A DNA stretch of 64,000 bases from an uncultured Chloroflexia bacterium. Its GTDB lineage: Bacteria > Chloroflexota > Dehalococcoidia > SZUA-161. The stretch covers positions 601,258 through 665,257 of the forward strand of contig CAWKAJ010000001.1 in assembly GCA_963847595.1 (NCBI GenBank), read 5' to 3'. Made by a program: the position numbers and the translations under genes. Positions 26,688 to 53,149 of the stretch are shown piece by piece (the stretch's first letter is position 1; every line of letters starts with the position of its first letter). The notes under the pieces were generated by a model, which saw only the letters and a list, made by a program, of their open reading frames with translations, was not told the origin of the DNA and searched no databases.

Positions 26688-28232
26688 TTACAATCTGATA
26701 TTTTCGTGTTTGCGTAGAGGCCTTCCCTCATCCCTGCTGGCAAATGTCTTCAGCGTCTGTATCAGGAAGGGTCTGGTGTCCCTGGGGTCGATGAAGCCCT
26801 GTCCCCATTCACGCTCCAGGGCCCGCAGCTTATGCCTCATCTCGACAGTCCGCTGTTCCAGTTTTTGCGCTCTCGCGGCTTCATCCTCGATGGCAGCGAG
26901 CTCCCTCCGGTAAATAATGGATACCGCACCCTCCGCTCCCATCAACCCGCGCTCCACAGAGGGCCAGGCCACGTCAACGTCGCCTCCCAGCGTCGTGCCT
27001 GGCATGGCCAACTGCCCGCCTCCGAAAAGCTTCCGTATAGCGATGGTTATCTGAGGCACGGTGCACTCGACATTGGAGAATACCAGCTTGCAGCCATGCC
27101 TGATAAGTCCTCTGGTCTCCTCATCGATGGCAGGCAAAAAGGCCGGGGTATCCGCCAGCCAGACCACGGCTATGTTGAAGGCATCGCAGAACCTGACGAA
27201 CCGCGCCATCTTATCAGCCGCGTCCAGGGTCAGCGCGCCGCCCATGGACTGGGGATTATTAGCTACAAAACCTACCGTCTCTCCGGCCAACCTGCCGAAG
27301 CCGGTTATCAGGTTGTTCGCCCACTGCCGTTTCAACTCCAGGAACTCGCCCTTGTCCACTACCAGCGAGATCAGCTTGGTCATACTGTACGGCTTATTTG
27401 TATCGAGAGGAGCCACGCTCAAAAGCTCCTCTTCCCTGCGATTGGGAGGGTCGCCGGTGTCCACCACAGGCGGCTTCTCCTTATTATTTGAGGGCAGGTA
27501 ACTCAGCAGCTTGCGGCAGTTCTCTATACACTCATTGTCGTCCTTGGCCAGGAAATCGCAGCATCCCGTCTTGCGGAAATGCCCCGAAGGATCGCCTGTT
27601 TCCTCGGAGGTCTTGCCCTGAGGCGGTAATGCTATGTGCATGTAGCTGGTCTTTCTGACCATGAACACGAAATCGGCCAGGGAGGCGGAGATAGCCATCT
27701 CGCCCACGCACGGCCCCATAATCAGAGAGATTTGGGGGATCACACCCGAGGCCATGGTCTGGAAATAGACCAGAGATTCGGGAGAGTAGAAGCGATAATA
27801 CTGAATGGCATCTTCGATTCTGGCGCCCTCGGAATCGATAATGCCCACGATAGGGATACGGGCATGGATGGCCTTCTCCATTGCCCCTGATATCTTGCGA
27901 GCATGGATGTTAGCCAGTGTCCCGCCGAAAACGGTGGCATCCTGCGCCCAGACGTAGATAGGGCGTCCATTTACCTGACCATATCCTACGGCAACGCCGT
28001 CTGCGGGGCCTTCCGTCTTATCGATATCGAACGCCGTAGCCATAGGCGTGCCGAACAGGTCAAGCTCCTGAAAAGTGCCGGGGTCGAGAAGCTTCTCAAT
28101 CCTCTCCCGCGCCGTGAGCTTCCCTTTCTTATGCTGCTTTTCAACCTCAGCGGGGCCACCGCCCTGCCTCAACTTGCCCCTCAACTCATCAATCTCGGAA
28201 ATCTTCTGTTTCATCATATCCAGATCGCTCAT
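26688..28232 (-). CDS. acyl-CoA carboxylase carboxyltransferase subunit, paralog 3 (close paralog of 4030-5583)
   Basis: 514 aa. Long blocks are identical to paralog 1 (IPIVGIIDSEG.RIEDAIQYYRFYSPES, GPCVGEMAISASLADFVFMVR). Confidence 0.88.
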   Translation of the reverse strand: MSDLDMMKQKISEIDELRGKLRQGGGPAEVEKQHKKGKLTARERIEKLLDPGTFQELDLFGTPMATAFDIDKTEGPADGVAVGYGQVNGRPIYVWAQDATVFGGTLANIHARKISGAMEKAIHARIPIVGIIDSEGARIEDAIQYYRFYSPESLVYFQTMASGVIPQISLIMGPCVGEMAISASLADFVFMVRKTSYMHIALPPQGKTSEETGDPSGHFRKTGCCDFLAKDDNECIENCRKLLSYLPSNNKEKPPVVDTGDPPNRREEELLSVAPLDTNKPYSMTKLISLVVDKGEFLELKRQWANNLITGFGRLAGETVGFVANNPQSMGGALTLDAADKMARFVRFCDAFNIAVVWLADTPAFLPAIDEETRGLIRHGCKLVFSNVECTVPQITIAIRKLFGGGQLAMPGTTLGGDVDVAWPSVERGLMGAEGAVSIIYRRELAAIEDEAARAQKLEQRTVEMRHKLRALEREWGQGFIDPRDTRPFLIQTLKTFASRDEGRPLRKHENIRL

Positions 28233-28313: not shown

Positions 28314-28342
28314 TTGACAAAAATCTGGCGACTGGTTACGAT
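28314..28342 (+). promoter_or_regulatory. candidate sigma70-type promoter TTGACA -17- TACGAT
   Basis: Consensus -35 and a reasonable -10. About 235 nt upstream of the CoA-transferase start at 28579. Confidence 0.35.
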
Positions 28343-28578: not shown

Positions 28579-30108
28579 ATGAGGATAACAGACGTCAATC
28601 AGCGCAGAGAGCATAAGAGAGATTGGAAAGAGGACTACAAGAGAAAAACGGTCTCGGCTGACGAGGCAGCCAGGGCGGTCAAGTCAGGCGATAGGGTTGC
28701 TTTACCTTTTGCGCATCCCACAGCGGTTCCGTTAGCCCTGGGGAAACGCAAAGATGAGCTGAAAAATGTATATCTGGAGATTAATGCGCCCTGGCTCGAC
28801 CCATGTTGGCTCCAACCGGGCTGCGAAGAGAATTTCTTCGTCGGTGCCATCCACTTCCTGGGACCGGTAGGCCGACCCTCTCACGATGCTAAGATATGCT
28901 CCTTCGTACCCTGTCTGATGTCGCTGCGGGCCAAGCTGTGCGACGAGGAAAGGCTGCATGGACGCAGGGATATCGACGTTTTCATGACCAACGTATCGCC
29001 TCCTGACAAGCATGGCTTTTGCAGCTTCGGCCCGCATATGTGGAACAAGAAGAGCTACGCCACGCGGGCTAAGGTGGTTATCGCCGAGATAGATGAGAAT
29101 ATGGTCTATCCTTACCGGGGCGACAATTTCATTCACGTATCGGATGTTGACTACTTTGTGGAAGCGCCTACGGCCCGCTTCACCGATGAGCAGCTCAGAA
29201 AGCTCGCTACAGAATCGGTTACAGATAAGAAAATGAGGCAGGCCTGGATAGAAGCCCTGCTAATGGGCAACAAGCACGAGCCGGAATACATCGGGCGCGC
29301 AGCCAACATGATAGCGCCGCTGATGAATCTGATGTCGCCCGATTTTTTTACCGGGCTCGTAGGGCTGGAAGAGCCCTATCCCGAGGCCAGGGCTATAGCA
29401 GGCTATGTGAGCGAGATAATCAAAAACGGCGATACCATCGAGATCGGTGCCGGCAGGCCCAGCACATGGCTGCCCCGGGTGGGACTCTTCGATAAATTCG
29501 AAGACCTGGGGATTCACTCCGAGATGTCGGCCTGGGGGCAACATGAGCTAATCAAGGCAGGGGTATTTAATGGGAAAAGGAAGACACTTCATCCGGGAAA
29601 AGCGATTTTCACGGCGCTCGATGGAGCCGGATGGGAAGGCTACCAGTGGATGAGCGATAACCCGCTTGTCGAGATGTACGATGCGGAGTACGTTCATCAC
29701 CCCACCGTCATCGCCCAAAACGAGAATATGGTAGCTATTAACAGCGTCCTTCAAGTCGACCTCACCGGCCAGATAACATGCGAGACGCAGTTCGGCCCCA
29801 GGATGATTAATGGGCCGGGGGGACAGCTAGACTTCCATCTCGGAGCTTTCATGGCGAAGGGGGGTCGAGCAATCAGCGTGTTGCGCACTCTGGCCTTCGG
29901 TGGGTGTTCCACTATTGTTCCCCAGATGCCCGAGGGCTCGTTGGTGACTATACCGCGTCAATTCGCTGATTATGTGGTCACCGAATACGGCATAGCCAGC
30001 CTGGCCGGCAAGAGCCATCGAGAGAGAGCTGAGGAGCTTATTGCCATCGCGCATCCCGATTTTCGTGCGGAGCTAAAAAAGGAAGCTCGTAAGTTGTTCT
30101 GGCCGTAG
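28579..30108 (+). CDS. acetyl-CoA hydrolase/transferase family CoA-transferase (4-hydroxybutyrate/butyryl-CoA:acetate CoA-transferase-like)
   Basis: About 510 aa with an AcetylCoA_hydro N/C two-domain pattern. The start is set at MRITDVNQ (RBS GGAG). The track ORF begins at 28477. Confidence 0.85.
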   Translation: MRITDVNQRREHKRDWKEDYKRKTVSADEAARAVKSGDRVALPFAHPTAVPLALGKRKDELKNVYLEINAPWLDPCWLQPGCEENFFVGAIHFLGPVGRPSHDAKICSFVPCLMSLRAKLCDEERLHGRRDIDVFMTNVSPPDKHGFCSFGPHMWNKKSYATRAKVVIAEIDENMVYPYRGDNFIHVSDVDYFVEAPTARFTDEQLRKLATESVTDKKMRQAWIEALLMGNKHEPEYIGRAANMIAPLMNLMSPDFFTGLVGLEEPYPEARAIAGYVSEIIKNGDTIEIGAGRPSTWLPRVGLFDKFEDLGIHSEMSAWGQHELIKAGVFNGKRKTLHPGKAIFTALDGAGWEGYQWMSDNPLVEMYDAEYVHHPTVIAQNENMVAINSVLQVDLTGQITCETQFGPRMINGPGGQLDFHLGAFMAKGGRAISVLRTLAFGGCSTIVPQMPEGSLVTIPRQFADYVVTEYGIASLAGKSHRERAEELIAIAHPDFRAELKKEARKLFWP

Positions 30109-30228
30109 CGTTTGACAAGGCCTTAAATATAGTGATAACTTGGAGTCGTCTAGAATACTATGGCGGACGGAAATTCAGGGCGCGGGAACTAATCAGGAGG
30201 GTGCCATCTAGAAAAGGTCAGGTGATTT

Positions 30229-31374
30229 GTGGCCAGAATAGCTCAGCGAGGGCTGGTAAAAGCCCAGGAGCTATACGAACATCGGGAGGCGAGAGCACAA
30301 GAGTTATCAAAAAAGGGCAAGAAGGTAATAGGGTATTTCTGTTCTTACACCCCTGTGGAGATTTTCACAGCCCTCGACGTGGTGCCCTACCGCATCCAGG
30401 GCAAGGTGGGTAAGCCGGTTGAGCAGGTCGGGCAATATCTTGAGTCAATTGTATGTCCCTACGTGCGCAGTTGCTTCGACCTCGCCCTGAGCGGCGATTT
30501 CAATTTTCTGTCCGGCGCCATTATCCCCCATACCTGCGATGCGATGCACCGCCTCTATGATATCTGGAAGTACCATCTCAAGCCGCCCTTTAGCTATCAA
30601 CTCTATGTGCCGCATATGACTCACCAGGCTTCTTACGAATTCTTCCAGAAGGAAATAGAGGGCCTCAAGACAGGCCTGGAGCAATTCATGGGGCGTTCGG
30701 CATCCGAGAAGGCCATAATTACGGCGATCAAACTCCATAACCGCAGTCGCGCCTTTCTCAGAGAGCTTTACAATCTGAGGAAAGCTGAGCCGCCGCTCAT
30801 CACAGGCACTGAGGTTATGTGGGTGCTGATCGCGGGGATGACCATACCTATCCAGGAATTCAACGAACTCCTGGAGGACGTCCTTGCGGAGGTCCGCCGC
30901 CGCAAGCCAGGCCCCGATACTAAGCCGCGTCTCCTCATCTCAGGCAGCGAGGTAGATGATGATTCATTGATACGCCTGGTCGAAGAATCCGGAGCCCATG
31001 TAGTAATGGATGACCTGTGCACGGGCACCCGCTTCTTCTGGCATGATGTTGACGCTTCGAAAGGCGCCATCCCTGGGCTCGCCGAACGCTACCTGGGAAT
31101 CACCTGCCCGCGCACTTACAGGCCGGGCAAAGTCCCGCAACGTTTCAGCTATCTGGGTGACTTCATCCGCGACTGGAAAGTACAAGGGGTTATCCTCTAC
31201 ACCATCAGATTCTGCGACACCTATCAATTAGATGCACCTGAGATGAAAGATTATATACAGAGCTTAGGTCTACCCGTGCTCTTCCTCGAGGATACCTACA
31301 TCACCTCTCCTTTAGGGCAGTGGAAGACCAGGGTCGAAGCCTTCCTGGAAACGATCGAGGCACGAAGGGAGTAA
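30229..31374 (+). CDS. 2-hydroxyacyl-CoA dehydratase family subunit (HgdB/HadC/BcrB-like, HGD-D family)
   Basis: 381 aa. GYFCSYTPVEIFTALDVVPYRIQG and HTCDAMHRLYDIWKY motifs characterise the D-component family. Confidence 0.8.
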   Translation: MARIAQRGLVKAQELYEHREARAQELSKKGKKVIGYFCSYTPVEIFTALDVVPYRIQGKVGKPVEQVGQYLESIVCPYVRSCFDLALSGDFNFLSGAIIPHTCDAMHRLYDIWKYHLKPPFSYQLYVPHMTHQASYEFFQKEIEGLKTGLEQFMGRSASEKAIITAIKLHNRSRAFLRELYNLRKAEPPLITGTEVMWVLIAGMTIPIQEFNELLEDVLAEVRRRKPGPDTKPRLLISGSEVDDDSLIRLVEESGAHVVMDDLCTGTRFFWHDVDASKGAIPGLAERYLGITCPRTYRPGKVPQRFSYLGDFIRDWKVQGVILYTIRFCDTYQLDAPEMKDYIQSLGLPVLFLEDTYITSPLGQWKTRVEAFLETIEARRE

Positions 31375-31378
31375 AGCC

Positions 31379-32707
31379 ATGGCGGAAGAGACCAAAACAG
31401 AACCCAAGCAAAAAACAAGCTCTGCCAAATCCACCGAGTCGGCAGGTAAAATACGCCTCATAGTTAAGCGCATGTATAAAAAGGCGCAGCAGGCTAAAGA
31501 GGAGAACCGCAAAGTAGCCTATTGCATGGTCATGTGCAACTACGAGGAAATCCTGGAGGCGATGGACGTTGTGCAGGTCTATACCGAGAACTACGCCGGC
31601 CTCTGCGCAGTCAAGAGAGAGGCCGAGCAATATATGAAGAAGGCGCAGGCTGAAGGATACTCCGATGTCCTGTGTGGTTACACTCAGGTAGGTATAGGCT
31701 TCGATGCCTGGCGACACGAACTGGGGGGAGCCATGCCGCCCGATGCCCCCGATGGGGGCATGCCGGAACCGGATATGCTTCTCGGGTGCAGTATGGGCTG
31801 CGACCCCCGCTGGAAATGGTACCAGGCTCTGGGGCGATACAAGGACACTCCAATCTATAACATGGAAGTCCTCATGCCACCCAGCGATGCCGATTTCGAC
31901 GCCATCAGGGATTACTACGTTCGCTACATGGCCGAGGAGCTCAGAGGGCTAATCGCATTCCTGGAAAAACTTACCAGCAAGAAGATGGACTACGACCGCC
32001 TCGCGTTAATCGTGAAGCAAGTGGAGGAAACAAGACAGTGGTGGCGCAAAGCCTACGACCTGAGAAAGGCCATCCCCTGCCCGATGTCCACCCAGGACCA
32101 CTTCGTCATTTTTGTGCCCCACCACATGCTGCTCACCGACCCCCTGACTCTGGATTTCTACAAAGGCCTTTACCAGGAGCTGAAAGAGAGAGTGGACAAT
32201 AAGATAGGCGTTATCGATGAGGAGAAGTATCGCCTGCTCTGGGGCGTGGGCATACCGCCCTGGCACAGCATGTATATACTCGACTACTTCCAGGAATTCG
32301 GTGCGGTCTTCGCCGCCGAGACCGCCTACATGATACCCGAACCCTTCGAGATGCCTAACCATATCAAGGATCCGGTGGAGCTAATCGCACTGCGCGCCTT
32401 TGAACGTAATAGCGCCTTGCAACGGAGGGGCAAAGAAGCAGGAGGAGTCCCTCCCCTCGCCCAGGCACACCTGGAGCGTATCAAGGACTTCAGCATCGAT
32501 GGAACAGTGATGCATGTCACACGCTCTTGCAGAGCGGCTACCATGGGTCAGATTCTGGTCAGACAGGTTATTCGTGACTACTATCCTCAAATGCCCGTGA
32601 TGTTCATGGAAAGCGACATCGTTGACGTCGATACTTACTCGGAAGCCGAGACGAAGAACCAGATAGATACTTTCATGGAGATGGTAGCCGCTTATAAGAA
32701 ATCCTAA
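31379..32707 (+). CDS. 2-hydroxyacyl-CoA dehydratase family subunit (HgdA/HadB/BcrC-like)
   Basis: 442 aa, partner of the preceding gene (4-nt intergenic gap). The Cys pattern (CNYEE...LCGYT...GCSMGCD) is HGD-D-like. Confidence 0.8.
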   Translation: MAEETKTEPKQKTSSAKSTESAGKIRLIVKRMYKKAQQAKEENRKVAYCMVMCNYEEILEAMDVVQVYTENYAGLCAVKREAEQYMKKAQAEGYSDVLCGYTQVGIGFDAWRHELGGAMPPDAPDGGMPEPDMLLGCSMGCDPRWKWYQALGRYKDTPIYNMEVLMPPSDADFDAIRDYYVRYMAEELRGLIAFLEKLTSKKMDYDRLALIVKQVEETRQWWRKAYDLRKAIPCPMSTQDHFVIFVPHHMLLTDPLTLDFYKGLYQELKERVDNKIGVIDEEKYRLLWGVGIPPWHSMYILDYFQEFGAVFAAETAYMIPEPFEMPNHIKDPVELIALRAFERNSALQRRGKEAGGVPPLAQAHLERIKDFSIDGTVMHVTRSCRAATMGQILVRQVIRDYYPQMPVMFMESDIVDVDTYSEAETKNQIDTFMEMVAAYKKS

Positions 32708-32728
32708 CAGATTGCAGAGGAGACGCAG

Positions 32729-33931
32729 ATGCCTAAGAGGCCATTGGAAGGTATCAGGGTACTGGACTGGACAGCCTGGCAGGCGGGACCCGTAGCAACT
32801 ACATTGCTGGCAGACATGGGCGCTGAGGTAATCAAGATAGAGCCGCCGGAGGGCGAGCCCGGCCGGGGTATGCTCAAGATGTACGGCGCAGATTTACCAC
32901 TGAACTTCTATTATCAGAGCCAAAATCGAGGCAAGAAAGGTATCGTTCTGAACCTGGCGACGGAGAAGGGCAAAAAGGTCCTTTATGAGCTGGTAAAGAA
33001 ATCCGATGTCTTCGTAACCAACTTCCGTGAAAGCGTGACCAAAAGGTTGAAGGTGGACTATAATACCTTAAAGAAGCACAATCCCAAACTCATCTACTGT
33101 TTGAGTTCGGGCCTCGGACCGAAGGGGCCTGAGGCCGATAGGATGTTCGCCGACTTCGCCGGTCAGGCAAGGGGCGGCTTGCTCAGCATCACTCAATCGG
33201 AAGACGATGTGCCGACATTTATAGGGGCTGGCTTTGCCGACGAGGTTGGCGGATTATTAGCAGCCTATGGAGTGCTGCTAGCCATCATCGCTAGAGAGCG
33301 GTTCGGCATAGGCCAGAGGGTGGACGCCTCTCTGCTGGGCGGGCAGATCGAGATGGGACGCCTTCAATTGCAGATGTACTTTATGATGGGCATCCTTCCC
33401 CCAACTTCAGTGATGAAAGCTATTAGAAATCCGCTATATTATGTCTACCAGGACTGCGATGGTAAATGGTTTGTTATCGCCGCACTTCAGGCAGACAGGT
33501 TCTGGTCTGATTTCTGCAAGGTATTCTGCATCGAAGGGCTGGAGAAAGATGAAAAATTCTGCAACCAGATATGCAGGGGGCAGAATTTCGATGAGCTTAA
33601 GCCCAGACTGTTTGAGATCGCTCGCTCTAAGCCCAGAAGCGAATGGCTGAAGAAGCTGGACGAGGCCGGAATTCCCGCAGCGCCGGTTAACGATTATGCC
33701 GATGTGGAGAAAGATCCTCAGGTGATACTCAACGAATACATCGTGGAAATAGACGACCCCATCCATGGAAAGGTCAAAGTGCCGGGCATCCCTGTGAAAC
33801 TGAGTAAGACACCGGGCAAGGTAGAGAAACTTGCCCCTGAGCTTGGCCAACATACAGAAGAGGTGTTAATGGAAGTTCTGGGCTATACCTGGGACGACCT
33901 GGCTAAATTGAGAGAAGCAGGAGTGTACTAA
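32729..33931 (+). CDS. family III CoA-transferase (CaiB/BaiF/Frc-like)
   Basis: MPKRPLEGIRVLDWTAWQAGPVATTLLADMGAEVIKIEPPEGEPGR is the canonical N-terminus. 400 aa. Confidence 0.9.
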   Translation: MPKRPLEGIRVLDWTAWQAGPVATTLLADMGAEVIKIEPPEGEPGRGMLKMYGADLPLNFYYQSQNRGKKGIVLNLATEKGKKVLYELVKKSDVFVTNFRESVTKRLKVDYNTLKKHNPKLIYCLSSGLGPKGPEADRMFADFAGQARGGLLSITQSEDDVPTFIGAGFADEVGGLLAAYGVLLAIIARERFGIGQRVDASLLGGQIEMGRLQLQMYFMMGILPPTSVMKAIRNPLYYVYQDCDGKWFVIAALQADRFWSDFCKVFCIEGLEKDEKFCNQICRGQNFDELKPRLFEIARSKPRSEWLKKLDEAGIPAAPVNDYADVEKDPQVILNEYIVEIDDPIHGKVKVPGIPVKLSKTPGKVEKLAPELGQHTEEVLMEVLGYTWDDLAKLREAGVY

Positions 33932-35007
33932 TGGCGAAGAGAATTCTTGCCGAGGGCAATGAGGCTGTAGGTTGGGGAGCGTTAAGCGCCGGATGCAAAT
34001 GCTTTTTCGGCTACCCCATAACACCGCAAAACGAAGTCATGGAGTTACTGGCAAAGGAGTTGCCTGACAGGGGCGGGGTTTTCATCCAGTCTCAGTGTGA
34101 GACTGGCGCGATAAACATGCTCTATGGGGCCGCTGCAGGCGGGGTCAGGGCCATGACCTCCACCGCCAGCCCGGGCTGGGCGTTGATGCAAGAAGGCTTG
34201 TCTGACATGGCTGGCGCCAACCTCCCGGGTGTAATCGTATTAGTACAGAGAATCGGGCCCGGTGTTCAAAGAGTGGAACATGCCCAGATGGACTACAACA
34301 GCGCTACCAAAGGCGGAGTCGGTGGCTATAAGAACATCGTTCTCGCTCCATCCTCCGTCCAGGAAACCCATGACCTTATGCAGCTTGCTTTCCATCTGGC
34401 AGACAAGTATCGGCATCCTACGGTGGTGCTGACCGAAGGAATAATGGGACATGTGATTGAGCCTCTAGAGATCAAAACGATAGACTTCGAACCCCTGCCT
34501 GAGAAGGACTGGGCACTACAAGGTCGCGGCAAACATAAAGATGGGAAATATCGTGAACTGGGGCCCAGCTACCATCCGCTGTACGATGGAACCTATCTTA
34601 ACTACCTTAACGCACTTCGAGAGAAATACAAGGCGATGGAGTCTGAACTGAGGTATGAAGAATACAAGATTCAAGGAGCCAAGGTTATTCTTGTCGCTTA
34701 TGGTTACTGCTCCAGGGTCGCCAAGGAAGCAGTAGATATGGCCCGGGCTGAAGGGCTCAAAGCAGGAATGTTGCGTCCCATAACGCTCTGGCCATTCCCA
34801 TACCAGCCACTTCGCGACAAGGCCGGTAAGGGGCGCAAATTTATCGCTGTTGAAGACAGCCTCGGCCAGATGGTCGATGATGTCAAGATGGCTGTCGAAG
34901 GTAAATCCGAGGTCTGCCTGGCAGACGTGACCTTCCGCCATATGCCTTCCGAGGAAGGCATGATCCTTCCGGGCAGGTTATTGCAGGAGATAAGGAGAAT
35001 GCTATGA
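33931..35007 (+). CDS. 2-oxoacid:ferredoxin oxidoreductase alpha subunit
   Basis: MAKRILAEGNEAVGWGALSAGCKCFFGYPITPQNEV... is the KorA/PorA-type N-terminus. The start overlaps the upstream stop (TAATG). Confidence 0.9.
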   Translation: MAKRILAEGNEAVGWGALSAGCKCFFGYPITPQNEVMELLAKELPDRGGVFIQSQCETGAINMLYGAAAGGVRAMTSTASPGWALMQEGLSDMAGANLPGVIVLVQRIGPGVQRVEHAQMDYNSATKGGVGGYKNIVLAPSSVQETHDLMQLAFHLADKYRHPTVVLTEGIMGHVIEPLEIKTIDFEPLPEKDWALQGRGKHKDGKYRELGPSYHPLYDGTYLNYLNALREKYKAMESELRYEEYKIQGAKVILVAYGYCSRVAKEAVDMARAEGLKAGMLRPITLWPFPYQPLRDKAGKGRKFIAVEDSLGQMVDDVKMAVEGKSEVCLADVTFRHMPSEEGMILPGRLLQEIRRML

Positions 35008-35795
35008 GCGAGAAGACAAAAGAAGTAGCGAAGCAAGTCGTTGTCGAAAAGCCGCTGCTTTTACGGGGCGAGGCCTGGATGGACATTATATGGGACCTTT
35101 TCTGCCCTGGCTGCCAGATACCGCTTGTGGGCCGCCTCGTCGCTGAGTCCCTCGAGGAACTAGGCATCGGGGATAAGGCTATTATGGTAGGCTGTGTTGG
35201 CTGCACGGGCATCTTGATAGCCAGTCTCACCATGGATAGAGTGAGCCCGGCCCACGGCCGGGGGCCCGATGTAGCCACCGCGCTCAAGCGTCTTCACCCG
35301 GACACGGTTGTCTTCACCGTGCAGGGTGACGGAGACTGTATCGCCATCGGGGCAGGCTCTCTGGTTGGTGCCTTAACCCGCGCTGAGAAGATTACCGTAA
35401 TCATGATTAACAATACCAACTACGGCACCACCGGCGGTCAGCTCGCGCCTACAACCCTCACCGGGCAGGTAACCAGCACCACCCCCAGGGGAAGAAACCC
35501 GAGCGTGGAGGGATATCCCATGCACACCGCTGAGATGGTAGCTACATTCAAAGGGGCTGCCTACAGCGCCCGGGGTTCGCTGCATACCCCTGCCGATTAC
35601 CAGAGAACAAAGAAATATATCAGGACTGCCTTCCAGAGGCAGATAGAGGGGGTGGGGCTCAGCTTCGTTGAAGTAATCGCAGCCTGCCCCGTTAATTGGC
35701 ATATGACTCCAGTGCAGGCCCTGGACTGGATAGGCGAAAAGGTAGTCCCTGAATTCCCTCTGGGCGAGTTCAAAAACGTCACTCATATCGAATAG
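35004..35795 (+). CDS. 2-oxoacid:ferredoxin oxidoreductase beta subunit (TPP-binding)
   Basis: CPGCQ...GCVGCTG and GDGD TPP-binding motifs. RBS AAGGAG. ATGA overlap with the alpha-subunit stop. Confidence 0.9.
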   Translation: MSEKTKEVAKQVVVEKPLLLRGEAWMDIIWDLFCPGCQIPLVGRLVAESLEELGIGDKAIMVGCVGCTGILIASLTMDRVSPAHGRGPDVATALKRLHPDTVVFTVQGDGDCIAIGAGSLVGALTRAEKITVIMINNTNYGTTGGQLAPTTLTGQVTSTTPRGRNPSVEGYPMHTAEMVATFKGAAYSARGSLHTPADYQRTKKYIRTAFQRQIEGVGLSFVEVIAACPVNWHMTPVQALDWIGEKVVPEFPLGEFKNVTHIE

Positions 35796-35817
35796 ACACG
35801 AAAGCGGGAGAAAAAGG

Positions 35818-36384
35818 ATGAAACAGACCAAAAATTCCAGAGGCGAGTTGATTATAGCCGGACTGGGCGGCATGGGCGTTCTCTCAGCCGGCCAGGTCTT
35901 GCTGGAGGCAGCCTTCCAGCAGTTCAAGTATGTATCCTATACTCCCACCTACGGTTTTGCCAAACGCGGCGGGCTTTGCCAGTGCACTGTTATCTTTTCC
36001 AATAAAGAGATCACCTCTCCGCTGATCGAGCAGGTACAGACGGTGATGTTTCTCGATAGCTCCCAGTTTGAGACTTTTGAGCCCAGGGTACGCCCCGGAG
36101 GGATTATTATTGCAGAGAAGGCCAGCATGTATGCTGAGAGAGGCAGGAAAGACTACAAGCTATATGAACTGCCCGGGCTTGAGATCGCCGTAAGCATGGG
36201 CGCGAGCCAGGTTAATAATTTCATCATGCTGGGTGCGTACGCTGCGATTACAGGGGCAGTCTCACCGGCGCATATCGAAGCCGAACTCGATAGGAGATAT
36301 GGAAAAGACAAGAAGGTATACGAGCGAAATCTGAGCGCCTTCAAGCGTGGCCTCGAGTTGGGGCAGAGCGCTGAATGCATGTAA
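35818..36384 (+). CDS. 2-oxoacid:ferredoxin oxidoreductase gamma subunit
   Basis: 188 aa. MKQTKNSRGELIIAGLGGMGVLSAGQVLLEAAF is the typical gamma-subunit N-terminus. Confidence 0.85.
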   Translation: MKQTKNSRGELIIAGLGGMGVLSAGQVLLEAAFQQFKYVSYTPTYGFAKRGGLCQCTVIFSNKEITSPLIEQVQTVMFLDSSQFETFEPRVRPGGIIIAEKASMYAERGRKDYKLYELPGLEIAVSMGASQVNNFIMLGAYAAITGAVSPAHIEAELDRRYGKDKKVYERNLSAFKRGLELGQSAECM

Positions 36385-36398
36385 GGTAAGAAGGTGAA

Positions 36399-38081
36399 AT
36401 GATAGGAGCAGAGGTCGTATGCAGCATCCTGAAAAATGAGGGTGTGAAGTATGTTTTTGGCGTTCCCGGCAACAGCGAAGTGCCCCTCCTGGATGCCCTG
36501 GCCCAGACCAAAGGAATAAGGTATATCAGCGCAATCCATGAGTCTGTCTCCATGGGGATGGCAGATGGCTACGCCCGAGCCTCAGAAAACGTGGGGGTGG
36601 TGCTGGTGCACACTACACCGGGAACTGCCAATATCATAGGGAACTTGAGCAATGCCTACGATGCCGGCACGCCCCTCGTAGTTATCGCAGGACAGCAGGA
36701 CTCGCGCCTCCAGTGGTGCGACTCTCTATTGGACTCCGACATTCTGCCCATGGTGAGCCAGCATACCAAAGACCGTTGGCGAGTGAACCGCGTCGAGGAT
36801 ATAGCTATAGCGCTGAACCGTGCATTCAAAGAAGCCTCGACTCCGCCGAGAGGGCCGGTATTTCTAGTAATTCCCCGGGACCTGCAGTCTCAGGCTTTGA
36901 CTACTGAGTACCACCCAACCCCGCGCCGCCAGGTGCCCATGTCCGTGAGACCAGATCAAGAGTATTTAAAAAAAGCAGCCCAGCTTCTAGTTGCCGCAAA
37001 GCAACCTGCCATCATGGCTGGTTCGCAGGTGCCCGGCGACGATGCCATTGCCGAGCTTACCGAATTGGCAGAGTTGCTCGGCGCCCCGGTATTTACCACC
37101 GGCCTGGTTCCCACGTTTATTTTCCCCACGAATCACCCGCTTTATTACGGCAGAGTACCGCCTATAGGTTTCGGTCTCCCCGGACTGGACAGCCCTGCCG
37201 ATGTGCTCGTGGCAGTGGGTAGCAGACTGTTCAAGCAGCTATTCTATATCGAGGGACCGATAATACCACCAAGCACTAAATTAATTCACATTGACCATGA
37301 CCCCAAAACGCTGTCCAGAGAATGTCCGGCAGAGGTAGCACTGGTAGGCAGCCCCAAGGCCATCCTTGCCGAACTGGCAACTGAGGTCAAGAAGCTCATG
37401 TCGCCCCGGCAGCGCCAGAGGAGCCAGCAAAGATTCAAAAAGCTGCAAAAGGGACATGAACAAGCCAAGGCAGCCTGTGCAGCGGACTTCAAGAAAGAAT
37501 GCAATGACGTGCCTATGCGGCCGTCGCGTGCCATCAAAGAGATCTCTAACGCTTTACCTCCAGACAGCGTAGTGGTAGATGAGGCCGTGATGCTTACCAG
37601 CTACGTGGCAAGCATCATGGAGTTCACCAAACCGGGAAGCTACTTCTGCTCCATCACTTCCCTGGGATGGGGCCTCCCCGCCTCACTTGGGGTGGGGTTG
37701 GCTAATTCTCGAAAGCCGGTGGTGGCGCTGGTGGGAGACGGCTCAGCTCTCTTCGGCATCCAGGCTTTGTGGTCGGCCGCCAAATACCGGATCCCCGTGG
37801 TCGTGGTAGTGCTCAACAACCGGGGCTATGCCGCCGTCAAGTGGGGTCTCGCCTCGTACCCGGACAGGAAATCAAGAGAAGGGGCTGACCTCGGCTACGA
37901 CCTGGGCAATGTCGATTTCCCTAAGCTGGCTCAATCCTTCGGTGTCAGTGGCCAACGCATCGAGAAGCCAGGCGAGATTGTGCCTGCATTGAAAAGAGCT
38001 ATCAGGGGCAGAAAGCCCGCCCTGCTCGACATTATGGTCGACCCCAGAGATGTAGGCTATGGCATGCCCCGCCTATCCTGA
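36399..38081 (+). CDS. thiamine-pyrophosphate enzyme of the ALS/POX/oxalyl-CoA-decarboxylase/2-hydroxyacyl-CoA-lyase superfamily
   Basis: 560 aa with a three-domain TPP pattern (GVPGNSEVPLLDAL, GTANIIGNL...PLVVIAGQQD, C-terminal GDG..N motif region). The specific function cannot be determined. Confidence 0.85.
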   Translation: MIGAEVVCSILKNEGVKYVFGVPGNSEVPLLDALAQTKGIRYISAIHESVSMGMADGYARASENVGVVLVHTTPGTANIIGNLSNAYDAGTPLVVIAGQQDSRLQWCDSLLDSDILPMVSQHTKDRWRVNRVEDIAIALNRAFKEASTPPRGPVFLVIPRDLQSQALTTEYHPTPRRQVPMSVRPDQEYLKKAAQLLVAAKQPAIMAGSQVPGDDAIAELTELAELLGAPVFTTGLVPTFIFPTNHPLYYGRVPPIGFGLPGLDSPADVLVAVGSRLFKQLFYIEGPIIPPSTKLIHIDHDPKTLSRECPAEVALVGSPKAILAELATEVKKLMSPRQRQRSQQRFKKLQKGHEQAKAACAADFKKECNDVPMRPSRAIKEISNALPPDSVVVDEAVMLTSYVASIMEFTKPGSYFCSITSLGWGLPASLGVGLANSRKPVVALVGDGSALFGIQALWSAAKYRIPVVVVVLNNRGYAAVKWGLASYPDRKSREGADLGYDLGNVDFPKLAQSFGVSGQRIEKPGEIVPALKRAIRGRKPALLDIMVDPRDVGYGMPRLS

Positions 38082-38166
38082 TCGTAGCAGATTGTAAGAG
38101 GTGCCCTCCTTCCCTGGAAGGATGGGGGACACAGGGGTTGAAGAACTTAGGCTGAAGGGAGGAACA

Positions 38167-39210
38167 ATGGCCTTTAAAGCGGTTGACATCCTGGGAATAT
38201 CCATGCTGCAGGACTATGCCAAGATGTTCAAAGATGCCGGGGTAGACGTTGAACTTGTGGTAAACGCCTGCCCTCTGGGGCCCACCGAGGACGAAATCAT
38301 CGCCGCAGCGAAAGATGCCGATGCTGTGATTGCGCAGGTTTCCTACCAGTGCCTTACCAGAAAAGTTCTGAGCAACTTGAAGACGTGTAAGTTAATTACC
38401 AGCATTGGCATTGGTTACGAGAATATAGATGTAGCAGCAGCCACTGAATTCGGTATCATGGCTGCCAACGTACCGGATGCCAACATAGAAGATGTGTCAG
38501 ACCATACCATGGGGCTTATACTGGCCTGCACCAGGCGGATTGTGCAGTTAAATAACGTCGTTAAAAAGGGAGGCTGGACCTCAGTAGCCTCTCCCCAAAT
38601 CATCGGAGATGTATGGCCGCATCTATCGAGGCTGAGGGGGCAAACTCTGGGGCTTATTGCCTTCGGCAAAATTCCGCGAGCTTTGGTACCCAAGGCCAGG
38701 GGCTTCGGGCTGAAGATTATGGTCTACGACCCCTACCTGCCGCCAGATATAATCCGCAGGTTCGATGTGGAACAGGTAGACCTGGACCGGTTGCTTGCGG
38801 ATTCCGACATCGTTTCCATACATACGCCGTTGACCGCGGAGACGAAACATATCCTGGGACTCAAGGAATTGAAGAAGATGAAACCCACCGCTTGCCTCAT
38901 CAATACCGCTCGCGGCGGTGTCGTTGACCATAAGGCGCTGTACACAGCCTTAACCAAAGGATACATTGCCGCAGCAGCCTTCGATGTCACCGAACCGGAA
39001 CCAATCAATCCGGATAACCCCTTGTTGAAGCTGGATAACTTCATCGTAACGGCCCACTCCGCTGGCCTGTCGCCACAGGCTCTCGCCGAAATGCAGCGCC
39101 GTCCCGGCGAGGAAATCATCAGGGTGGTTCAAGGTAGATGGCCCTTTGGGTTGGTCAACCCCGAGGTCAAAACCAAGTTCATCAAAAAGTGGGGGAAAGC
39201 TCTCAAGTAA
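38167..39210 (+). CDS. D-isomer-specific 2-hydroxyacid dehydrogenase (NAD-binding)
   Basis: About 347 aa with the 2-Hacid_dh pattern (GLIAFGKIPRAL...HTPLT...NTARGGVVD...TAHSAG). The start is set at MAFKAVD (RBS GGGAGG). The track ORF begins at 38101. Confidence 0.85.
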   Translation: MAFKAVDILGISMLQDYAKMFKDAGVDVELVVNACPLGPTEDEIIAAAKDADAVIAQVSYQCLTRKVLSNLKTCKLITSIGIGYENIDVAAATEFGIMAANVPDANIEDVSDHTMGLILACTRRIVQLNNVVKKGGWTSVASPQIIGDVWPHLSRLRGQTLGLIAFGKIPRALVPKARGFGLKIMVYDPYLPPDIIRRFDVEQVDLDRLLADSDIVSIHTPLTAETKHILGLKELKKMKPTACLINTARGGVVDHKALYTALTKGYIAAAAFDVTEPEPINPDNPLLKLDNFIVTAHSAGLSPQALAEMQRRPGEEIIRVVQGRWPFGLVNPEVKTKFIKKWGKALK

Positions 39211-39230
39211 CCGTGTCGTTTAGGAACTGA

Positions 39231-39330
39231 GGAGTCCAGAGGGGCTTTGCCCCTCTGGTGGGGGCCTGGGGGTATCCCCCAGCCTTAAAAGTCCCCCAAG
39301 ACTGGGGGATTTAGGGGGTTGAAAAGTGTC
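39231..39330. repeat. G-rich triple-hairpin repeat, family A copy 3 (within operon, between dehydrogenase and ferredoxin)
   Basis: ggagtccagaggggctttgcccctctggtgggggcctgggggtatcccccag...cccccaagactgggggatttagggggttgaaaag. Confidence 0.7.
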
Positions 39331-39368
39331 GCTAAATGCTCTCTCAAGTAACCGTTTTAGGGGGAAAC

Positions 39369-39599
39369 ATGGCTAAAGGTGAAATAACAATTAACGAAGC
39401 GGTTTGCAAAGGGTGTGGCTACTGCGCCAAATTCTGCTCCCGTGGGGGCATCGTGATGTCCAAGGATAAGTTCACACCCAAGGGTTATCTTCTCCCCACC
39501 TTCGCCAATCCCGAGAAGTGCAACGCCTGTGGTATTTGCGGCTGGATGTGCCCCCGCTTCGCTATCGAGGTTTATAAATACGTCGACGCGCCTTGTTGA
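39369..39599 (+). CDS. 2x[4Fe-4S] ferredoxin
   Basis: 76 aa with two CxxCxxCxxxCP motifs (CKGCGYCAKFC, CNACGICGWMCP). Confidence 0.85.
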   Translation: MAKGEITINEAVCKGCGYCAKFCSRGGIVMSKDKFTPKGYLLPTFANPEKCNACGICGWMCPRFAIEVYKYVDAPC

Positions 39600-39683: not shown

Positions 39684-40127
39684 ATGAGAAGTGTGGAGTT
39701 GACCGTCACCATCAAAGCACCCAGGGACATAGTTCTCAGGGAGATCTCGGAATATACCCATCCTCCGATACTCCACAAGCGCGTGATAAAGTCAGTCCGG
39801 GTGCTTGAGGATGCTAACAACGTCAGCGTCGCGCTGTGGCGACTTAAGGTGCTCGGATTCACACGCTCGGCGAAGCAAAGGCAGACTGTAATTCCGCCTG
39901 ACCGGATGACGAACGAGACTATCGAGGGATTCGCCAAGGGCACTTTGGAGAGCACCTCTCTCCAAGAGACAGGCGACACTACCGTAATTGTGGACAGGGT
40001 GGACGTGCGGGTGCCCTCTTGGGGTAAGCTGCTGGAGATACCGGTAGCCTGGTATACGAAGCGCCTGACTCTGGGAATACTTATGGACCATAAGAGAGAC
40101 CTGGAGTCTAGAAGCACATCCAGGTGA
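39684..40127 (+). CDS. SRPBCC (Bet v1/START-like, polyketide-cyclase-like) ligand-binding domain protein
   Basis: 147 aa. MRSVELTVTIKAPRDIVLREISEY resembles the N-terminus of SRPBCC family members. Moderate confidence. Confidence 0.45.
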   Translation: MRSVELTVTIKAPRDIVLREISEYTHPPILHKRVIKSVRVLEDANNVSVALWRLKVLGFTRSAKQRQTVIPPDRMTNETIEGFAKGTLESTSLQETGDTTVIVDRVDVRVPSWGKLLEIPVAWYTKRLTLGILMDHKRDLESRSTSR

Positions 40128-45898: not shown

Positions 45899-45997
45899 CT
45901 CGCCCCTTTTCATCTTCCCGTGATTATCCGCAACTTAATGCGAACTTATACGATTATCTACCGGCCTCGCTGGAGCTAATAAGCACAGGCCGGCATC

Positions 45998-47950: not shown

Positions 47951-48039
47951 CTCGCTCCTTTTCCCAGGATATCTAGAGGGTAGCATGCGCCCATCTGACT
48001 GTCAATCAGCCTCGTCGGTTCATTGTGCCACAAACACTG

Positions 48040-48290
48040 GAGATGAAGGAATAAAATTTCCCTCCCCTCGAGGGAGGGATTAAAGGGAGGGGGATCTAGC
48101 ATCCGTTTCTGGTGAGCCTTGTCCTGAACTTGCCGAAGGATCGTCGAAGGATGAGGGGGAAGAATTCAACCATAGGGACACAGGGTGCCGTGCCCTTCAC
48201 TTTGCCTTTCGAATTCGTTCATAGCCCCGAAACCCACGACGATAGACGAAACAAGCAGCGTAACCGGACGACGAACCACTCCCTCATCTG
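48040..48290. repeat. mosaic hairpin-repeat region (ccctcccCTCGAGggaggg, cctgtcctga..gtcgaagga, ccacgacgatagacgaaacaagcagcg)
   Basis: Modules match 58551-58566, 59300-59345 and 23945-24000 respectively. Confidence 0.55.
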
Positions 48291-53141: not shown

Positions 53142-53149
53142 AGGTATCC

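Follow-up and report, generated by a model that had tools for sequence, protein, structure and literature searches.

A candidate 2-oxoacid/2-hydroxyacid gene cluster around an uncharacterised class-I BCR/HGD-D clade in an uncultured Dehalococcoidia bacterium

Related enzyme systems

All characterised members of the HGD-D enzyme family (HAD, BCR, and DCCP) require an ASKHA ATPase (PMC7317905, PMC9351452, PMC11971306). The described systems closest to the locus reported here are BzdNO, the catalytic module of the Azoarcus/Aromatoleum-type class-I benzoyl-CoA reductase (BCR), a heterodimer of two HGD-D proteins (PDB 8S02; PMC11971306, from which the residue roles in BzdN and BzdO given below are taken); the (R)-2-hydroxyacyl-CoA dehydratase systems HadBC/HadI/HadA/LdhA, FldBC/FldI/FldA/FldH, and HgdAB/HgdC (PDB 3O3M), which combine a D-2-hydroxyacid dehydrogenase, a family-III CoA-transferase, and an HGD-D heterodimer; and DCCP/DCCP-R (PDB 6ENO, 7YYL; YjiM/YjiL), in which a homodimer acting on small molecules is always accompanied by its ATPase. 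Known dehydratase beta subunits carry three-Cys clusters (PMC7317905, PMC11971306).

Gene organisation

The window (the whole 64,000-nucleotide stretch of DNA that was analysed) carries ten genes on the + strand in the order given by the preliminary description, as Pfam and NCBIfam confirm, and the families to which that description assigned them are correct. The co-directional run extends three genes past the ferredoxin gene, to 42033, and intergenic gaps among the cluster genes are -4 to 158 nt. The features are as follows.

25033-26652 and 26688-28232, - strand: two divergent carboxyltransferase genes (PF01039, 411 and 440 bits)
28579-30108, + strand: G1, CoA-transferase of the acetyl-CoA hydrolase/transferase family (family-I; PF13336, 181.9 bits; PF02550)
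30229-31374, + strand: N, small HGD-D subunit (PF06050, 317 bits)
31379-32707, + strand: O, large HGD-D subunit (PF06050, 186 bits)
32729-33931, + strand: G4, family-III CoA-transferase (CoA_transf_3; PF02515, 354 bits)
33931-35007, + strand: 2-oxoacid:ferredoxin oxidoreductase (OFOR) alpha subunit (PF01855, PF17147)
35004-35795, + strand: OFOR beta subunit, TPP and proximal [4Fe-4S] (PF02775)
35818-36384, + strand: OFOR gamma subunit (PF01558, 110 bits)
36399-38081, + strand: G8, benzoylformate decarboxylase (BFDC)-like TPP enzyme (three TPP domains)
38101-39210, + strand: G9, D-isomer-specific 2-hydroxyacid dehydrogenase (PF02826, 185 bits; PF00389)
39336-39599, + strand: G10, 2x[4Fe-4S] ferredoxin (Fer4 families)
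39684-40127, + strand: G11, SRPBCC/polyketide-cyclase-like small protein (PF10604, 26.3 bits; cutoff 27.4)
40171-40725, + strand: G12, Cys-rich protein of 184 aa
40834-42033, + strand: second family-III CoA-transferase, the last co-directional gene (PF02515, 359 bits)

The likely start of G1 is the ATG at 28579, which is preceded by GGGAG and yields 509 aa, the length also found in relatives; the mechanical ORF begins earlier, at a GTG at 28477. Likely starts of G9 and G10 are at 38167 (347 aa; relatives 344-349 aa) and 39369 (76 aa), respectively.

The HGD-D subunits

Against NCBIfam, N scores best with double_cubane (NF040772; 235 bits, family cutoff 350 bits), followed by BzdN (195 bits) and HadC (164 bits), all below cutoff; against PDB, it matches BzdN (8S02_B, 200 bits), HadC (144 bits), MbdN (104 bits), and DCCP (100 bits). 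Identity to BzdN, its closest solved relative, is only 31%, and all six cysteines that ligate the BzdN [8Fe-9S] cluster are retained in the alignment (C38, C76, C103, C264, C293, and C329 for Cys36, 73, 100, 263, 293, and 327), as are the cluster-contacting arginines (R55 and R268 for Arg53 and Arg267). In HadC, by contrast, two of these six positions are Pro and Ala. The prediction is thus that N harbours an [8Fe-9S] double-cubane cluster and serves for electron storage. The six-Cys motif is shared with DCCP, and a 52%-identical relative of N (P0094/L083) stands alone as an HGD-D gene and, like DCCP with DCCP-R, is accompanied by a single ATPase; unlike DCCP, N is one half of a heterodimer with a CoA-ester-binding-looking partner. 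The earlier description of the small subunit as HgdB-like is rejected, given the six conserved cysteines and the higher score for BzdN than for HadC.

The best NCBIfam matches of O are HadB (132 bits), BzdO (112 bits), and BcrB (94 bits); its top solved match is BzdO (99.7 bits), with MbdO (95.3 bits) and HadB (88.1 bits) close behind. Because O scores about equally for BzdO, MbdO, and HadB, sequence does not settle whether it belongs to a dehydratase or a reductase. It retains the three [4Fe-4S] cysteines of BzdO (C99, C141, and C384 for Cys95, 128, and 380), a three-Cys catalytic site also found in the Had/Fld/Hgd dehydratases, together with the catalytic glutamate (E70 for Glu65) and Tyr97 (Y101), residues of the BzdO/HadB-type active site. 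In place of BzdO His131, however, O has Arg144, and Cys-Glu-Gly is changed to Cys-Arg-Ala; counting from the conserved Glu, as the BzdO N-terminus is unaligned, the residue inferred to correspond to Trp46 is Val. O is predicted to be the catalytic, acyl-CoA-binding [4Fe-4S] subunit. The suggestion that the pair might instead be BcrBC-like thus fits the BzdN-like electron-storage subunit, but neither the substitution of His131 in O nor the lack of dienoyl-CoA pathway genes nearby.

Accompanying genes

G1 has its best PDB match in 4-hydroxybutyrate CoA-transferase (3EH7, 270 bits) and is, judged by similarity, a family-I CoA-transferase of the 4-hydroxybutyrate/butyryl-CoA:acetate type. The nearest solved proteins to G4 are formyl-CoA transferase (Frc, 196 bits), SUGCT (183 bits), and YfdE (159 bits). 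G9 is closest to McyI (187 bits), PGDH (185 bits), CtBP (185 bits), and glyoxylate reductase (171 bits), as opposed to about 120 bits for D-LDH, and therefore resembles PGDH/GyaR/McyI proteins rather than the D-LDH-like enzymes of the clostridial pathways. Dehydrogenase, family-III CoA-transferase, and HGD-D pair co-occur here as in the clostridial Fld/Had/Hgd module invoked by the preliminary description, but none is orthologous to its clostridial counterpart. The locus also differs from that module by the addition of an OFOR, a ferredoxin, a TPP enzyme, and the 4-hydroxybutyrate-type CoA-transferase.

The OFOR alpha subunit matches the VorB-type model NF005507 (408 bits, above the 399-bit cutoff), and the beta subunit has the cysteines of the CPGC, VGCVGC, and AACP motifs. 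Ferredoxin G10 resembles an OFOR delta subunit in its sub-cutoff NCBIfam matches (OGOR_delta, 48.8 bits; OorD, 40.4 bits). It adjoins N/O even in the OFOR-less loci L008 and L013, and in L033 it precedes them. Ferredoxin and OFOR constitute the electron supply of the ATP-dependent class-I BCR (Fdx/KorAB in Thauera), and such electron-donor genes accompany BCR clusters as they do N/O.

The TPP enzyme, previously proposed to be of the Oxc/HACL type, is BFDC-like instead: its top PDB match is benzoylformate decarboxylase (254 bits), well ahead of acetolactate synthases (about 170 bits), and it scores 369 bits with the BFDC equivalog NF005485 (cutoff 493) and 317 bits with acolac_lg. Compared with MdlC (PDB 1BFD), G8 has the same three-domain layout and retains the GDGS...NN TPP motif, Glu47, which activates the cofactor, and the catalytic His70, but Ser26 is replaced by Asn and His281 by Leu. 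L009 and L018, although orthologous clusters, lack G8, which marks it as accessory. Nor is G8 an ordinary acetolactate synthase, judging from the same bit scores.

Copies of G11 (69-83% identical) occupy the same place in L005, L018, L019, and L020, with a 38%-identical copy in L008. G12, found only in Dehalococcoidia, has a predicted V4R/H-NOX/Bet3-like fold. The second family-III CoA-transferase has an 87%-identical copy in the same position in L005. The divergent carboxyltransferases score 522 and 543 bits against MmdA-type TIGR01117, below cutoff, and lie in the same position in L004-L007, L011, and L081; conserved in the closest relatives only, they are possibly associated with the cluster.

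Conservation of the cluster

About 20 Dehalococcoidia MAG loci share this gene set, so the arrangement is not due to chance, and nearly all Dehalococcoidia loci have a G1 relative directly 5' of N/O. L008 and L013, which lack OFOR and dehydrogenase, retain a minimal core: the SRPBCC protein, ferredoxin, and G12, G1, N, and O. The operon is an uncharacterised variant of the known HGD-D enzyme family. In a tree of the catalytic subunit, the window clade joins L029 (Nitrospinae), L026 and L033 (Chloroflexota), L085 (peat), L024, and L027.

A family-III CoA-transferase gene stands beside the pair in 17 of the 23 loci of the wider clade and a D-2-hydroxyacid dehydrogenase gene in 12, vs. none of the 25 loci of the two-ATPase clade in either case (Fisher p = 2e-8 and 2e-5, respectively, for loci that are not phylogenetically independent). 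The combination of dehydrogenase, family-III CoA-transferase, and HGD-D pair recurs in Chloroflexota, Nitrospinota, and a peat lineage. Across four lineages, the clade adjoins genes for both enzymes and sometimes for enoyl-CoA hydratase (ECH), and this makes a 2-hydroxyacyl-CoA a likelier substrate than an aromatic ring. As in the Had/Fld/Hgd systems, enoyl-CoA-processing genes occur 3' of the pair in relatives: ECH follows N/O in L027, and ECH, SDR, and thiolases surround N/O in L085, which would fit an enoyl-CoA product.

The activator ATPase

No activator ATPase was found in the window, as the preliminary description had noted. A tblastn search of the 64 kb with HgdC (1HUX) gave a best match of only E = 4; a Pfam scan of 53 window ORFs (all but two at least 100 aa) matched PF01869 just once, partially and below threshold, within an FGGY sugar kinase; and an HMM built from 60 ATPases of related loci, run on the 807 ORFs of 40 aa or more in all six frames, hit only that FGGY sugar kinase (25.8 bits). 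There is likewise no HgdC/BcrAD-type ATPase in the 276 kb covering 26 Dehalococcoidia-clade loci, nor within ±10 kb in seven of eight further analysed loci of the wider catalytic-subunit clade, L035 being the exception. In this respect the locus is unlike both the Had/Fld/Hgd systems, with their adjacent activator genes, and BzdNO, with its BzdPQ ATPase genes.

The absence does not hold throughout the clade, however. L031, left out of the eight-locus count because its O gene is truncated, belongs to the same catalytic-subunit clade (the truncated O shares 59-61% identity with those of L029 and L085 and 55-57% with those of the window clade) and has a single HgdC-like gene directly upstream, in the order ATPase, family-III CoA-transferase, N, O. 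MAG43 carries both the ATPase-less cluster L033 and L035, which has two ATPases. From these relatives we infer that an ATP-dependent activator is probably encoded elsewhere in the genome, unlinked to the cluster; the OFOR and ferredoxin, as the known electron supply of class-I BCR, were counted toward the same conclusion, and the lack of an ATPase in the window and the 26 Dehalococcoidia-clade loci was counted against it.

Proposed function and alternatives

Our preferred reading, with a probability of about 0.5, is that the operon is a 2-oxoacid/2-hydroxyacid module built around an uncharacterised class-I BCR/HGD-D clade with an unlinked activator. The dehydrogenase would reduce a 2-oxoacid, probably amino-acid-derived and possibly aromatic or otherwise hydrophobic, to the (R)-2-hydroxyacid, from which G4 and/or G1 would form the 2-hydroxyacyl-CoA. 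O would hold this thioester at its three-Cys [4Fe-4S] cluster for ketyl-radical chemistry, most likely dehydration to the 2-enoyl-CoA, with N storing the activating electron(s) in its double-cubane cluster. Oxidation of that 2-oxoacid, or one related to it, by the OFOR would yield acyl-CoA and reduced ferredoxin, the low-potential electron source, and electrons would be injected by an ATP-dependent activator that is most probably encoded elsewhere; the BFDC-like enzyme may form an optional branch that turns 2-oxoacid into aldehyde. A dehydratase of this kind would be unprecedented, because N is BzdN/DCCP-like, whereas known dehydratase beta subunits have three-Cys clusters. No gene for enoyl-CoA reductase, ETF, dienoyl-CoA hydratase, or any other ECH-family protein was detected by Pfam among the window ORFs; the first two and ECH were counted against a dehydratase, as was the position of dehydrogenase and CoA-transferase outside the clostridial subfamilies.

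It is unlikely that N/O is instead a class-I-BCR-style reductase, placing two ferredoxin-derived electrons onto an aromatic, dienoyl, or otherwise unsaturated acyl-CoA supplied by the CoA-transferases or by OFOR action on an aryl-2-oxoacid (e.g., phenylglyoxylate to benzoyl-CoA), with dehydrogenase and BFDC-like enzyme forming a mandelate-type upper pathway. The top solved matches of N, O, and G8, the classical BCR electron-donor genes, and the complete [8Fe-9S] motif of N, the site of electron storage for arene reduction in BzdN, would all suit such an enzyme, as would the folds of G11 and G12, characteristic of binding proteins for hydrophobic or aromatic ligands. Against this stand the low identity of N to BzdN, the altered His131 and inferred Trp46 positions in O, the loss of BFDC Ser26 and His281 from G8, and the missing dienoyl-CoA hydratase. 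Three AOR-family genes close by were also counted in favour of a reductase, but their similarity to BamB (186 bits) does not exceed that to ordinary AOR (226 bits). Furthermore, unless ATP or bifurcation assists, arene reduction driven by ferredoxin is endergonic (PMC11971306), and the cluster has no linked ATPase; a ring reductase would also leave the D-2-hydroxyacid dehydrogenase, a recurrent neighbour across phyla, without a role.

Also improbable, in our view, is an ATPase-free enzyme in which OFOR-reduced ferredoxin charges the double-cubane cluster of N directly, and O either dehydrates its substrate or uses two stored electrons to remove the 2-hydroxyl and yield a saturated acyl-CoA. 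The distribution of ATPase genes described above agrees with this outside L035 and L031, as does the retention of ferredoxin with N/O where OFOR is lost; a multi-electron double-cubane cluster has no known role in a dehydratase-like setting, and direct dehydroxylation would account for a cluster that lacks enoyl-CoA reductase. ATP-independent working of N/O is not proven, however: HAD, BCR, and DCCP all need their ATPase, same-clade L031 has one linked, the MAG43 genome has ATPases elsewhere, and ferredoxin and OFOR would fit an electron path that leads through an ATPase just as well.

Very unlikely is a division into separate pathways, with OFOR, ferredoxin, TPP enzyme, and dehydrogenase serving 2-oxoacid fermentation and N/O with the CoA-transferases acting on an unrelated acyl-CoA: the cluster is modular (G8 lost in L009/L018, OFOR and dehydrogenase in L008/L013), and N/O are shifted to its far end in L019 and L020 and stand alone behind a ribosomal-protein operon in L032, but the genes are tightly spaced with overlapping stop and start codons, and dehydrogenase and family-III CoA-transferase genes accompany N/O in several phyla in differing gene orders.

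Organization of the gene cluster

Ten plus-strand genes are encoded at 28.5–39.6 kb of the window, and Pfam and NCBIfam assignments confirm the gene order given in the preliminary description. Genes for the alpha, beta, and gamma subunits of a 2-oxoacid:ferredoxin oxidoreductase (OFOR) lie between those for the family-III CoA-transferase and the TPP enzyme. Spacing across the cluster is operon-like (intergenic distances of −4 to 158 nt), and the co-directional run extends past 39599, through three more genes. Apart from the OFOR genes, the run comprises:

28579–30108, +, 4-hydroxybutyrate-type CoA-transferase
30229–31374, +, small HGD-D subunit (N)
31379–32707, +, large HGD-D subunit (O)
32729–33931, +, family-III CoA-transferase
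36399–38081, +, TPP enzyme
38101–39210, +, D-2-hydroxyacid dehydrogenase
39336–39599, +, ferredoxin
39684–40127, +, conserved SRPBCC-like protein, third from last in the co-directional run
40171–40725, +, Cys-rich protein, restricted to Dehalococcoidia
40834–42033, +, second family-III CoA-transferase, end of the co-directional run

The mechanical ORF of the first CoA-transferase begins at GTG 28477; the start is most likely ATG 28579, as originally proposed, because GGGAG precedes this codon and the orthologues are 509 aa long. From orthologue lengths (344–349 and 76 aa), the dehydrogenase probably starts at 38167 and the ferredoxin at 39369. The best plus-strand promoter-like site in a promoter scan (28314–28342) is upstream of the first gene, and the overall number of such sites is near chance (16 vs. 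10.4 ± 2.8 in shuffled sequence), as is that of terminator-like sites (16 vs. 14.1 ± 4.0). The terminator scan found no strong terminator inside the cluster, and no Rfam family was found in the whole window.

The small and large HGD-D subunits

The N and O genes are 4 nt apart, and both products match PF06050 (317 bits for N; 186 bits for O). Among solved structures, N is closest to BzdN, a subunit of the Aromatoleum class-I benzoyl-CoA reductase (200 bits; only 31% identity), followed by HadC (144 bits; 29% identity), MbdN (104 bits), and DCCP (100 bits). Of the NCBIfam models, the double-cubane reductase family NF040772 scores highest (235.5 bits; cutoff 350), and N reaches 194.6 bits against the BzdN equivalog TIGR03190 (cutoff 453.8). 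In BzdN the [8Fe-9S] cluster is ligated by Cys36, Cys73, Cys100, Cys263, Cys293, and Cys327 (PMC11971306). All six align with cysteines of N (C38, C76, C103, C264, C293, and C329), and two cluster-contacting arginines are also kept, whereas HadC has Pro and Ala in place of C38 and C264. These six double-cubane cysteines set N apart from dehydratase beta subunits, whose sole cluster is a three-Cys [4Fe-4S]/[4Fe-5S] cluster in place of a double cubane. DCCP is a homodimer served by the DCCP-R ATPase, whereas the N gene is accompanied by that of a different partner subunit and by no ATPase gene. Judged by its cluster ligands, N is predicted to be an electron-storage subunit of the benzoyl-CoA-reductase type.

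The large subunit O gives near-equal scores against BzdO (99.7 bits), MbdO (95.3 bits), and HadB (88.1 bits), so that sequence alone settles no class; its best NCBIfam model is HadB, and the BzdO equivalog TIGR03191 yields 112 bits (cutoff 448.6). C99, C141, and C384 of O align with the three cysteines that ligate the [4Fe-4S] cluster of BzdO, a coordination shared by HadB (PMC11971306). O would thus fit a catalytic alpha subunit whose [4Fe-4S] cluster has three Cys ligands and leaves one Fe open. Also retained from BzdO are the catalytic glutamate and a tyrosine. In contrast, BzdO His131 is replaced by Arg144, the Cys-Glu-Gly motif by Cys-Arg-Ala, and Trp46 probably by Val51; the last of these is placed by a fixed offset from Glu65/E70, the BzdO N-terminus being outside the alignment. 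Of the residues forming the BzdO-type ring site (three Cys, Glu65, His131, and Trp46), O keeps only the cysteines and the glutamate.

Conservation and genomic neighborhood

The closest relatives of N (≤90% identity) all belong to uncultured Dehalococcoidia or Chloroflexota. Approximately 20 MAG loci share a set comprising the 4-hydroxybutyrate-type CoA-transferase, N, O, the family-III CoA-transferase, OFOR alpha-beta-gamma, the dehydrogenase, and the ferredoxin. The TPP enzyme is optional (missing in L009 and L018); two loci (L008 and L013) have a minimal form consisting of the SRPBCC protein, the Cys-rich protein, a CoA-transferase, N, O, and ferredoxin; in L019 and L020, N/O are at the far end of the cluster; and in a closed MAG chromosome (CP070819.1; L032) N/O stand alone after a ribosomal-protein operon. 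This recurrence with variants shows that the cluster is genuine, conserved, and of modular build; that its neighboring genes merely represent unrelated modules is the least probable of the readings considered.

In a neighbor-joining tree of the catalytic subunit, the clade of the window clusters with pairs lacking a linked ATPase from Nitrospinae (L029), Chloroflexota (L026 and L033), a peat lineage (L085), and Desulfobacterota (L024 and L027). The clade has a wide distribution among uncultured bacteria of sediment and groundwater. A second, more distant clade, here termed the two-ATPase clade, has members in Syntrophus, NaphS2, Desulfobacteraceae, and some Chloroflexota, and its N proteins are 39–44% identical to that of the window. 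Among the analyzed loci, which are not phylogenetically independent, 17 of 23 from the catalytic-subunit clade of the window have a family-III CoA-transferase vs. none of 25 from the two-ATPase clade, and 12/23 vs. 0/25 have a D-2-hydroxyacid dehydrogenase. An enoyl-CoA hydratase (ECH) gene follows the pair in L027, and the L085 pair is surrounded by genes for ECH, SDR, thiolases, and an ADP-forming acyl-CoA synthetase. Because the dehydrogenase and CoA-transferase accompany the pair and enoyl-CoA-processing genes follow it, the arrangement has the logic of a 2-hydroxyacyl-CoA dehydratase and not that of an arene reductase. These neighbors in relatives (dehydrogenase, CoA-transferase, ECH) support 2-hydroxyacyl-CoA dehydration as the predicted reaction of N/O.

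This clade therefore joins a double-cubane subunit of the benzoyl-CoA-reductase type to accessory genes of the dehydratase pathway, as a rule without a linked ATPase. The cluster is a variant of a known enzyme family in which a double-cubane subunit is predicted to serve a dehydratase-type pathway; a literature search found no description of it. In public annotation these genes appear as benzoyl-CoA reductase subunits (e.g., “benzoyl-CoA reductase subunit C”); this is likely misleading, and the label feeds claims of aromatic degradation for Chloroflexota MAGs.

Accessory enzymes

The TPP enzyme is clearly closest to benzoylformate decarboxylase (BFDC) among PDB sequences (254 bits, vs. ~170 bits for acetolactate synthases) and scores 369 bits against the NCBIfam BFDC model NF005485 (cutoff 493). 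The Oxc/HACL-type assignment suggested in the preliminary description is not borne out, as both types are missing from the 25 top-scoring NCBIfam families (each ≥227 bits) and from the 60 top-scoring PDB sequences (each ≥152 bits); the BFDC scores speak against an ordinary acetolactate synthase. BFDC Glu47 and His70 are kept, whereas Ser26 is replaced by Asn and His281 by Leu, and for this reason the protein is not a canonical BFDC. It is probably a BFDC-like enzyme that acts as a 2-oxoacid decarboxylase or as a carboligase, and some orthologous clusters do without it.

The OFOR alpha subunit exceeds the cutoff of the VorB-type NCBIfam model (408 vs. 399 bits), and the beta and gamma subunits are also recognized, with the usual cluster cysteines in beta. 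The ferredoxin is weakly delta-subunit-like (48.8 bits; cutoff 125) and is encoded two genes away from OFOR. It follows N/O even in loci without OFOR, and is read as the electron carrier between OFOR and the N/O enzyme. The dehydrogenase resembles McyI, PGDH, CtBP, and glyoxylate reductases (187 bits, vs. ~120 bits for D-LDH), and the family-III CoA-transferase is nearest to formyl-CoA transferase (Frc), SUGCT, and YfdE. Judged from these PDB matches, neither appears to be an orthologue of its clostridial counterparts (LdhA/FldH/HgdH for the dehydrogenase, HadA/FldA for the CoA-transferase). The Cys-rich protein has seven invariant cysteines, and its predicted model (pLDDT 70, moderate) resembles ligand-binding domains of the V4R/H-NOX/Bet3 type. 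This protein and the SRPBCC protein together give a weak hint of a hydrophobic or aromatic ligand.

Activator ATPase

The window lacks an activator ATPase (HgdC/HadI/FldI or BcrAD type), as the preliminary description had stated; in known dehydratase systems its gene is usually adjacent. An HgdC query, a valid probe given its 552-bit match to PDB 1HUX, gave a best tblastn E-value of 4, and no BcrAD_BadFG protein was found by Pfam among 53 window ORFs (all but two of at least 100 aa), nor were BzdPQ/BcrAD-type two-subunit ATPase genes found in the window. A profile derived from 60 ATPases encoded at related loci matched only an FGGY sugar kinase among all 807 six-frame window ORFs (25.8 bits) and had no match in 276 kb of 26 loci of the Dehalococcoidia clade. 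With a Chloroflexi activator as the query, the best 120 of at least 8000 matches included no ATPase on a contig of 836,467 (the length of the contig that carries the window), 1,138,894, or 2,135,587 bp. Two candidates within the window were rejected. The ORF at 10573–12159, with a weak PF01869 match, is a full FGGY sugar kinase (164 + 114 bits) that has only the ASKHA fold in common with activators. The Cys-rich protein was considered as a stand-in, and its predicted V4R/H-NOX/Bet3-like, ligand-binding fold (pLDDT 70) does not include a nucleotide-binding fold.

In the flanking DNA covered for the two-ATPase clade, ATPase genes are next to N/O in all 25 analyzed loci, with two in most, so the missing linkage is a property of the clade of the window. 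Two Chloroflexota loci with ATPases (L089 and L090) fall in the two-ATPase clade and are uninformative about that of the window. L089 (GCA_042575365.1, JBHPBL010000002.1; 2569–10661) encodes in a row one N-type and two O-type proteins, two ATPases, a D-2-hydroxyacid dehydrogenase, and a UbiD-family decarboxylase, an unusual duplication of the catalytic subunit in this clade. A further arrangement occurs in a groundwater metagenome (L083/L084, 10001–12006), where a lone HGD-D gene with a product 52% identical to N is immediately followed by one BcrAD_BadFG ATPase; this DCCP/YjiLM-like two-gene system shows that an N-type protein also exists as a stand-alone ATPase-coupled enzyme.

Proposed metabolism and alternatives

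We propose, with a probability of about 0.5, that the cluster encodes a module with a 2-oxoacid as its hub, in which N/O convert a 2-hydroxyacyl-CoA with the help of an unlinked activator. The 2-oxoacid would be reduced to the (R)-2-hydroxyacid, which would be activated by CoA transfer. N/O would then convert the product through ketyl-radical chemistry, with dehydration to the enoyl-CoA as the likeliest reaction. Oxidation of 2-oxoacid by OFOR would supply reduced ferredoxin to the radical enzyme, with electron injection probably performed by an activator ATPase whose gene lies elsewhere. If such an unlinked activator exists, N/O would constitute the first predicted enzyme with a double cubane that converts 2-hydroxyacyl-CoA, and a marker of amino-acid or 2-hydroxyacid fermentation in Dehalococcoidia.

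To our knowledge, all characterized enzymes of the family (benzoyl-CoA reductases, 2-hydroxyacyl-CoA dehydratases, and double-cubane proteins) spend ATP for one very-low-potential electron. A truly ATPase-free system, as the absence of linked ATPase genes might suggest, would have OFOR-reduced ferredoxin load the [8Fe-9S] cluster of N directly, with O either dehydrating 2-hydroxyacyl-CoA or reductively removing the hydroxyl group. We consider this improbable. In a Thermodesulfobacteriota locus (L031), an ATPase gene precedes those for a family-III CoA-transferase, N, and O, and its O fragment is nearest (59–61%) to ATPase-less members of the catalytic-subunit clade of the window. The genome MAG43_tar_biofilm has both an ATPase-less locus (L033: ferredoxin, N, O, dehydrogenase, and CoA-transferase) and an N-O-ATPase-ATPase locus (L035). 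Further, ferredoxin and OFOR feed electrons to the ATPase module of the Thauera benzoyl-CoA reductase, and since the same pair supplies an ATPase there, its presence is no argument for ATP-independence. ATP-independence is thus not the likeliest reading; if it did hold, ketyl-radical chemistry would run on ferredoxin alone in the first BCR/HAD-family member without an ATP-hydrolyzing activator, with bearing on how energy-starved organisms of the subsurface balance their energy and on biocatalysis.

Equally doubtful is the alternative that N/O reduce an aromatic or unsaturated acyl-CoA with ferredoxin as the electron donor. The benzoyl-CoA-reductase-type cysteines of N are consistent with it; against it stand the incomplete ring site of O and the dehydratase-type neighborhood. 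The 2-oxoacid module with an unlinked activator remains our preferred reading.

Other genes of the window

Biotin carboxylase (1833–3227) and carboxyltransferase-domain genes (3961–5583, 25033–26652, and 26688–28232) occur in one 28-kb stretch, and acyl-CoA carboxylase or decarboxylase capacity adjoins the cluster; on the contig of a relative (L088), a small biotinyl-carrier gene is beside the carboxylase. A RuBisCO large-subunit-like protein (12156–13469, +; PF00016, 160 bits) is flanked by an FGGY-family kinase (10573–12159) and a saccharopine-dehydrogenase-like protein (13430–14704, +), and 10573–14704 (+) resembles a sugar or thiosugar operon of the RuBisCO-like-protein kind.

Three paralogous genes for AOR-family tungsten enzymes of ~650 aa are near the cluster (43964–47986, −; 53964–55910, +). 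Their identification as BamB of class-II benzoyl-CoA reductase is not supported, the first gene scoring 226 bits against Pyrococcus furiosus AOR vs. 186 bits against BamB; these enzymes could oxidize aldehydes from the BFDC-like enzyme. The gene set at 50922–58473 (+), with a LuxR-type regulator upstream (50314–50694), encodes a molybdoenzyme, a DmsB-like 4x[4Fe-4S] protein, an AOR-family enzyme, and two adjacent family-III CoA-transferases; the molybdoenzyme (50922–53141) is of the DmsA/YnfE type (TIGR02166, 673 bits) and not a phenylacetyl-CoA oxidoreductase.

A secreted repeat protein (42507–43574, +) has a signal peptide, a Thr/Pro-rich linker, and ~8 copies of a ~30-residue motif (ILHYDGSAWS...VWGSSSSDVFAVG) with a propeller-like look, and matches no Pfam family. 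Low-GC islands occur at 8000–10000 (0.425), 48000–50000 (0.419), and 61500–64000 (0.378), vs. ~0.54 elsewhere. The second contains an EVE-domain protein (48845–49834) and the third an rve integrase fragment (61563–62183), a SIR2_2-like protein (62213–63106), and an ORF without assignment (63081–63995); all three islands are probably acquired mobile or defense DNA.
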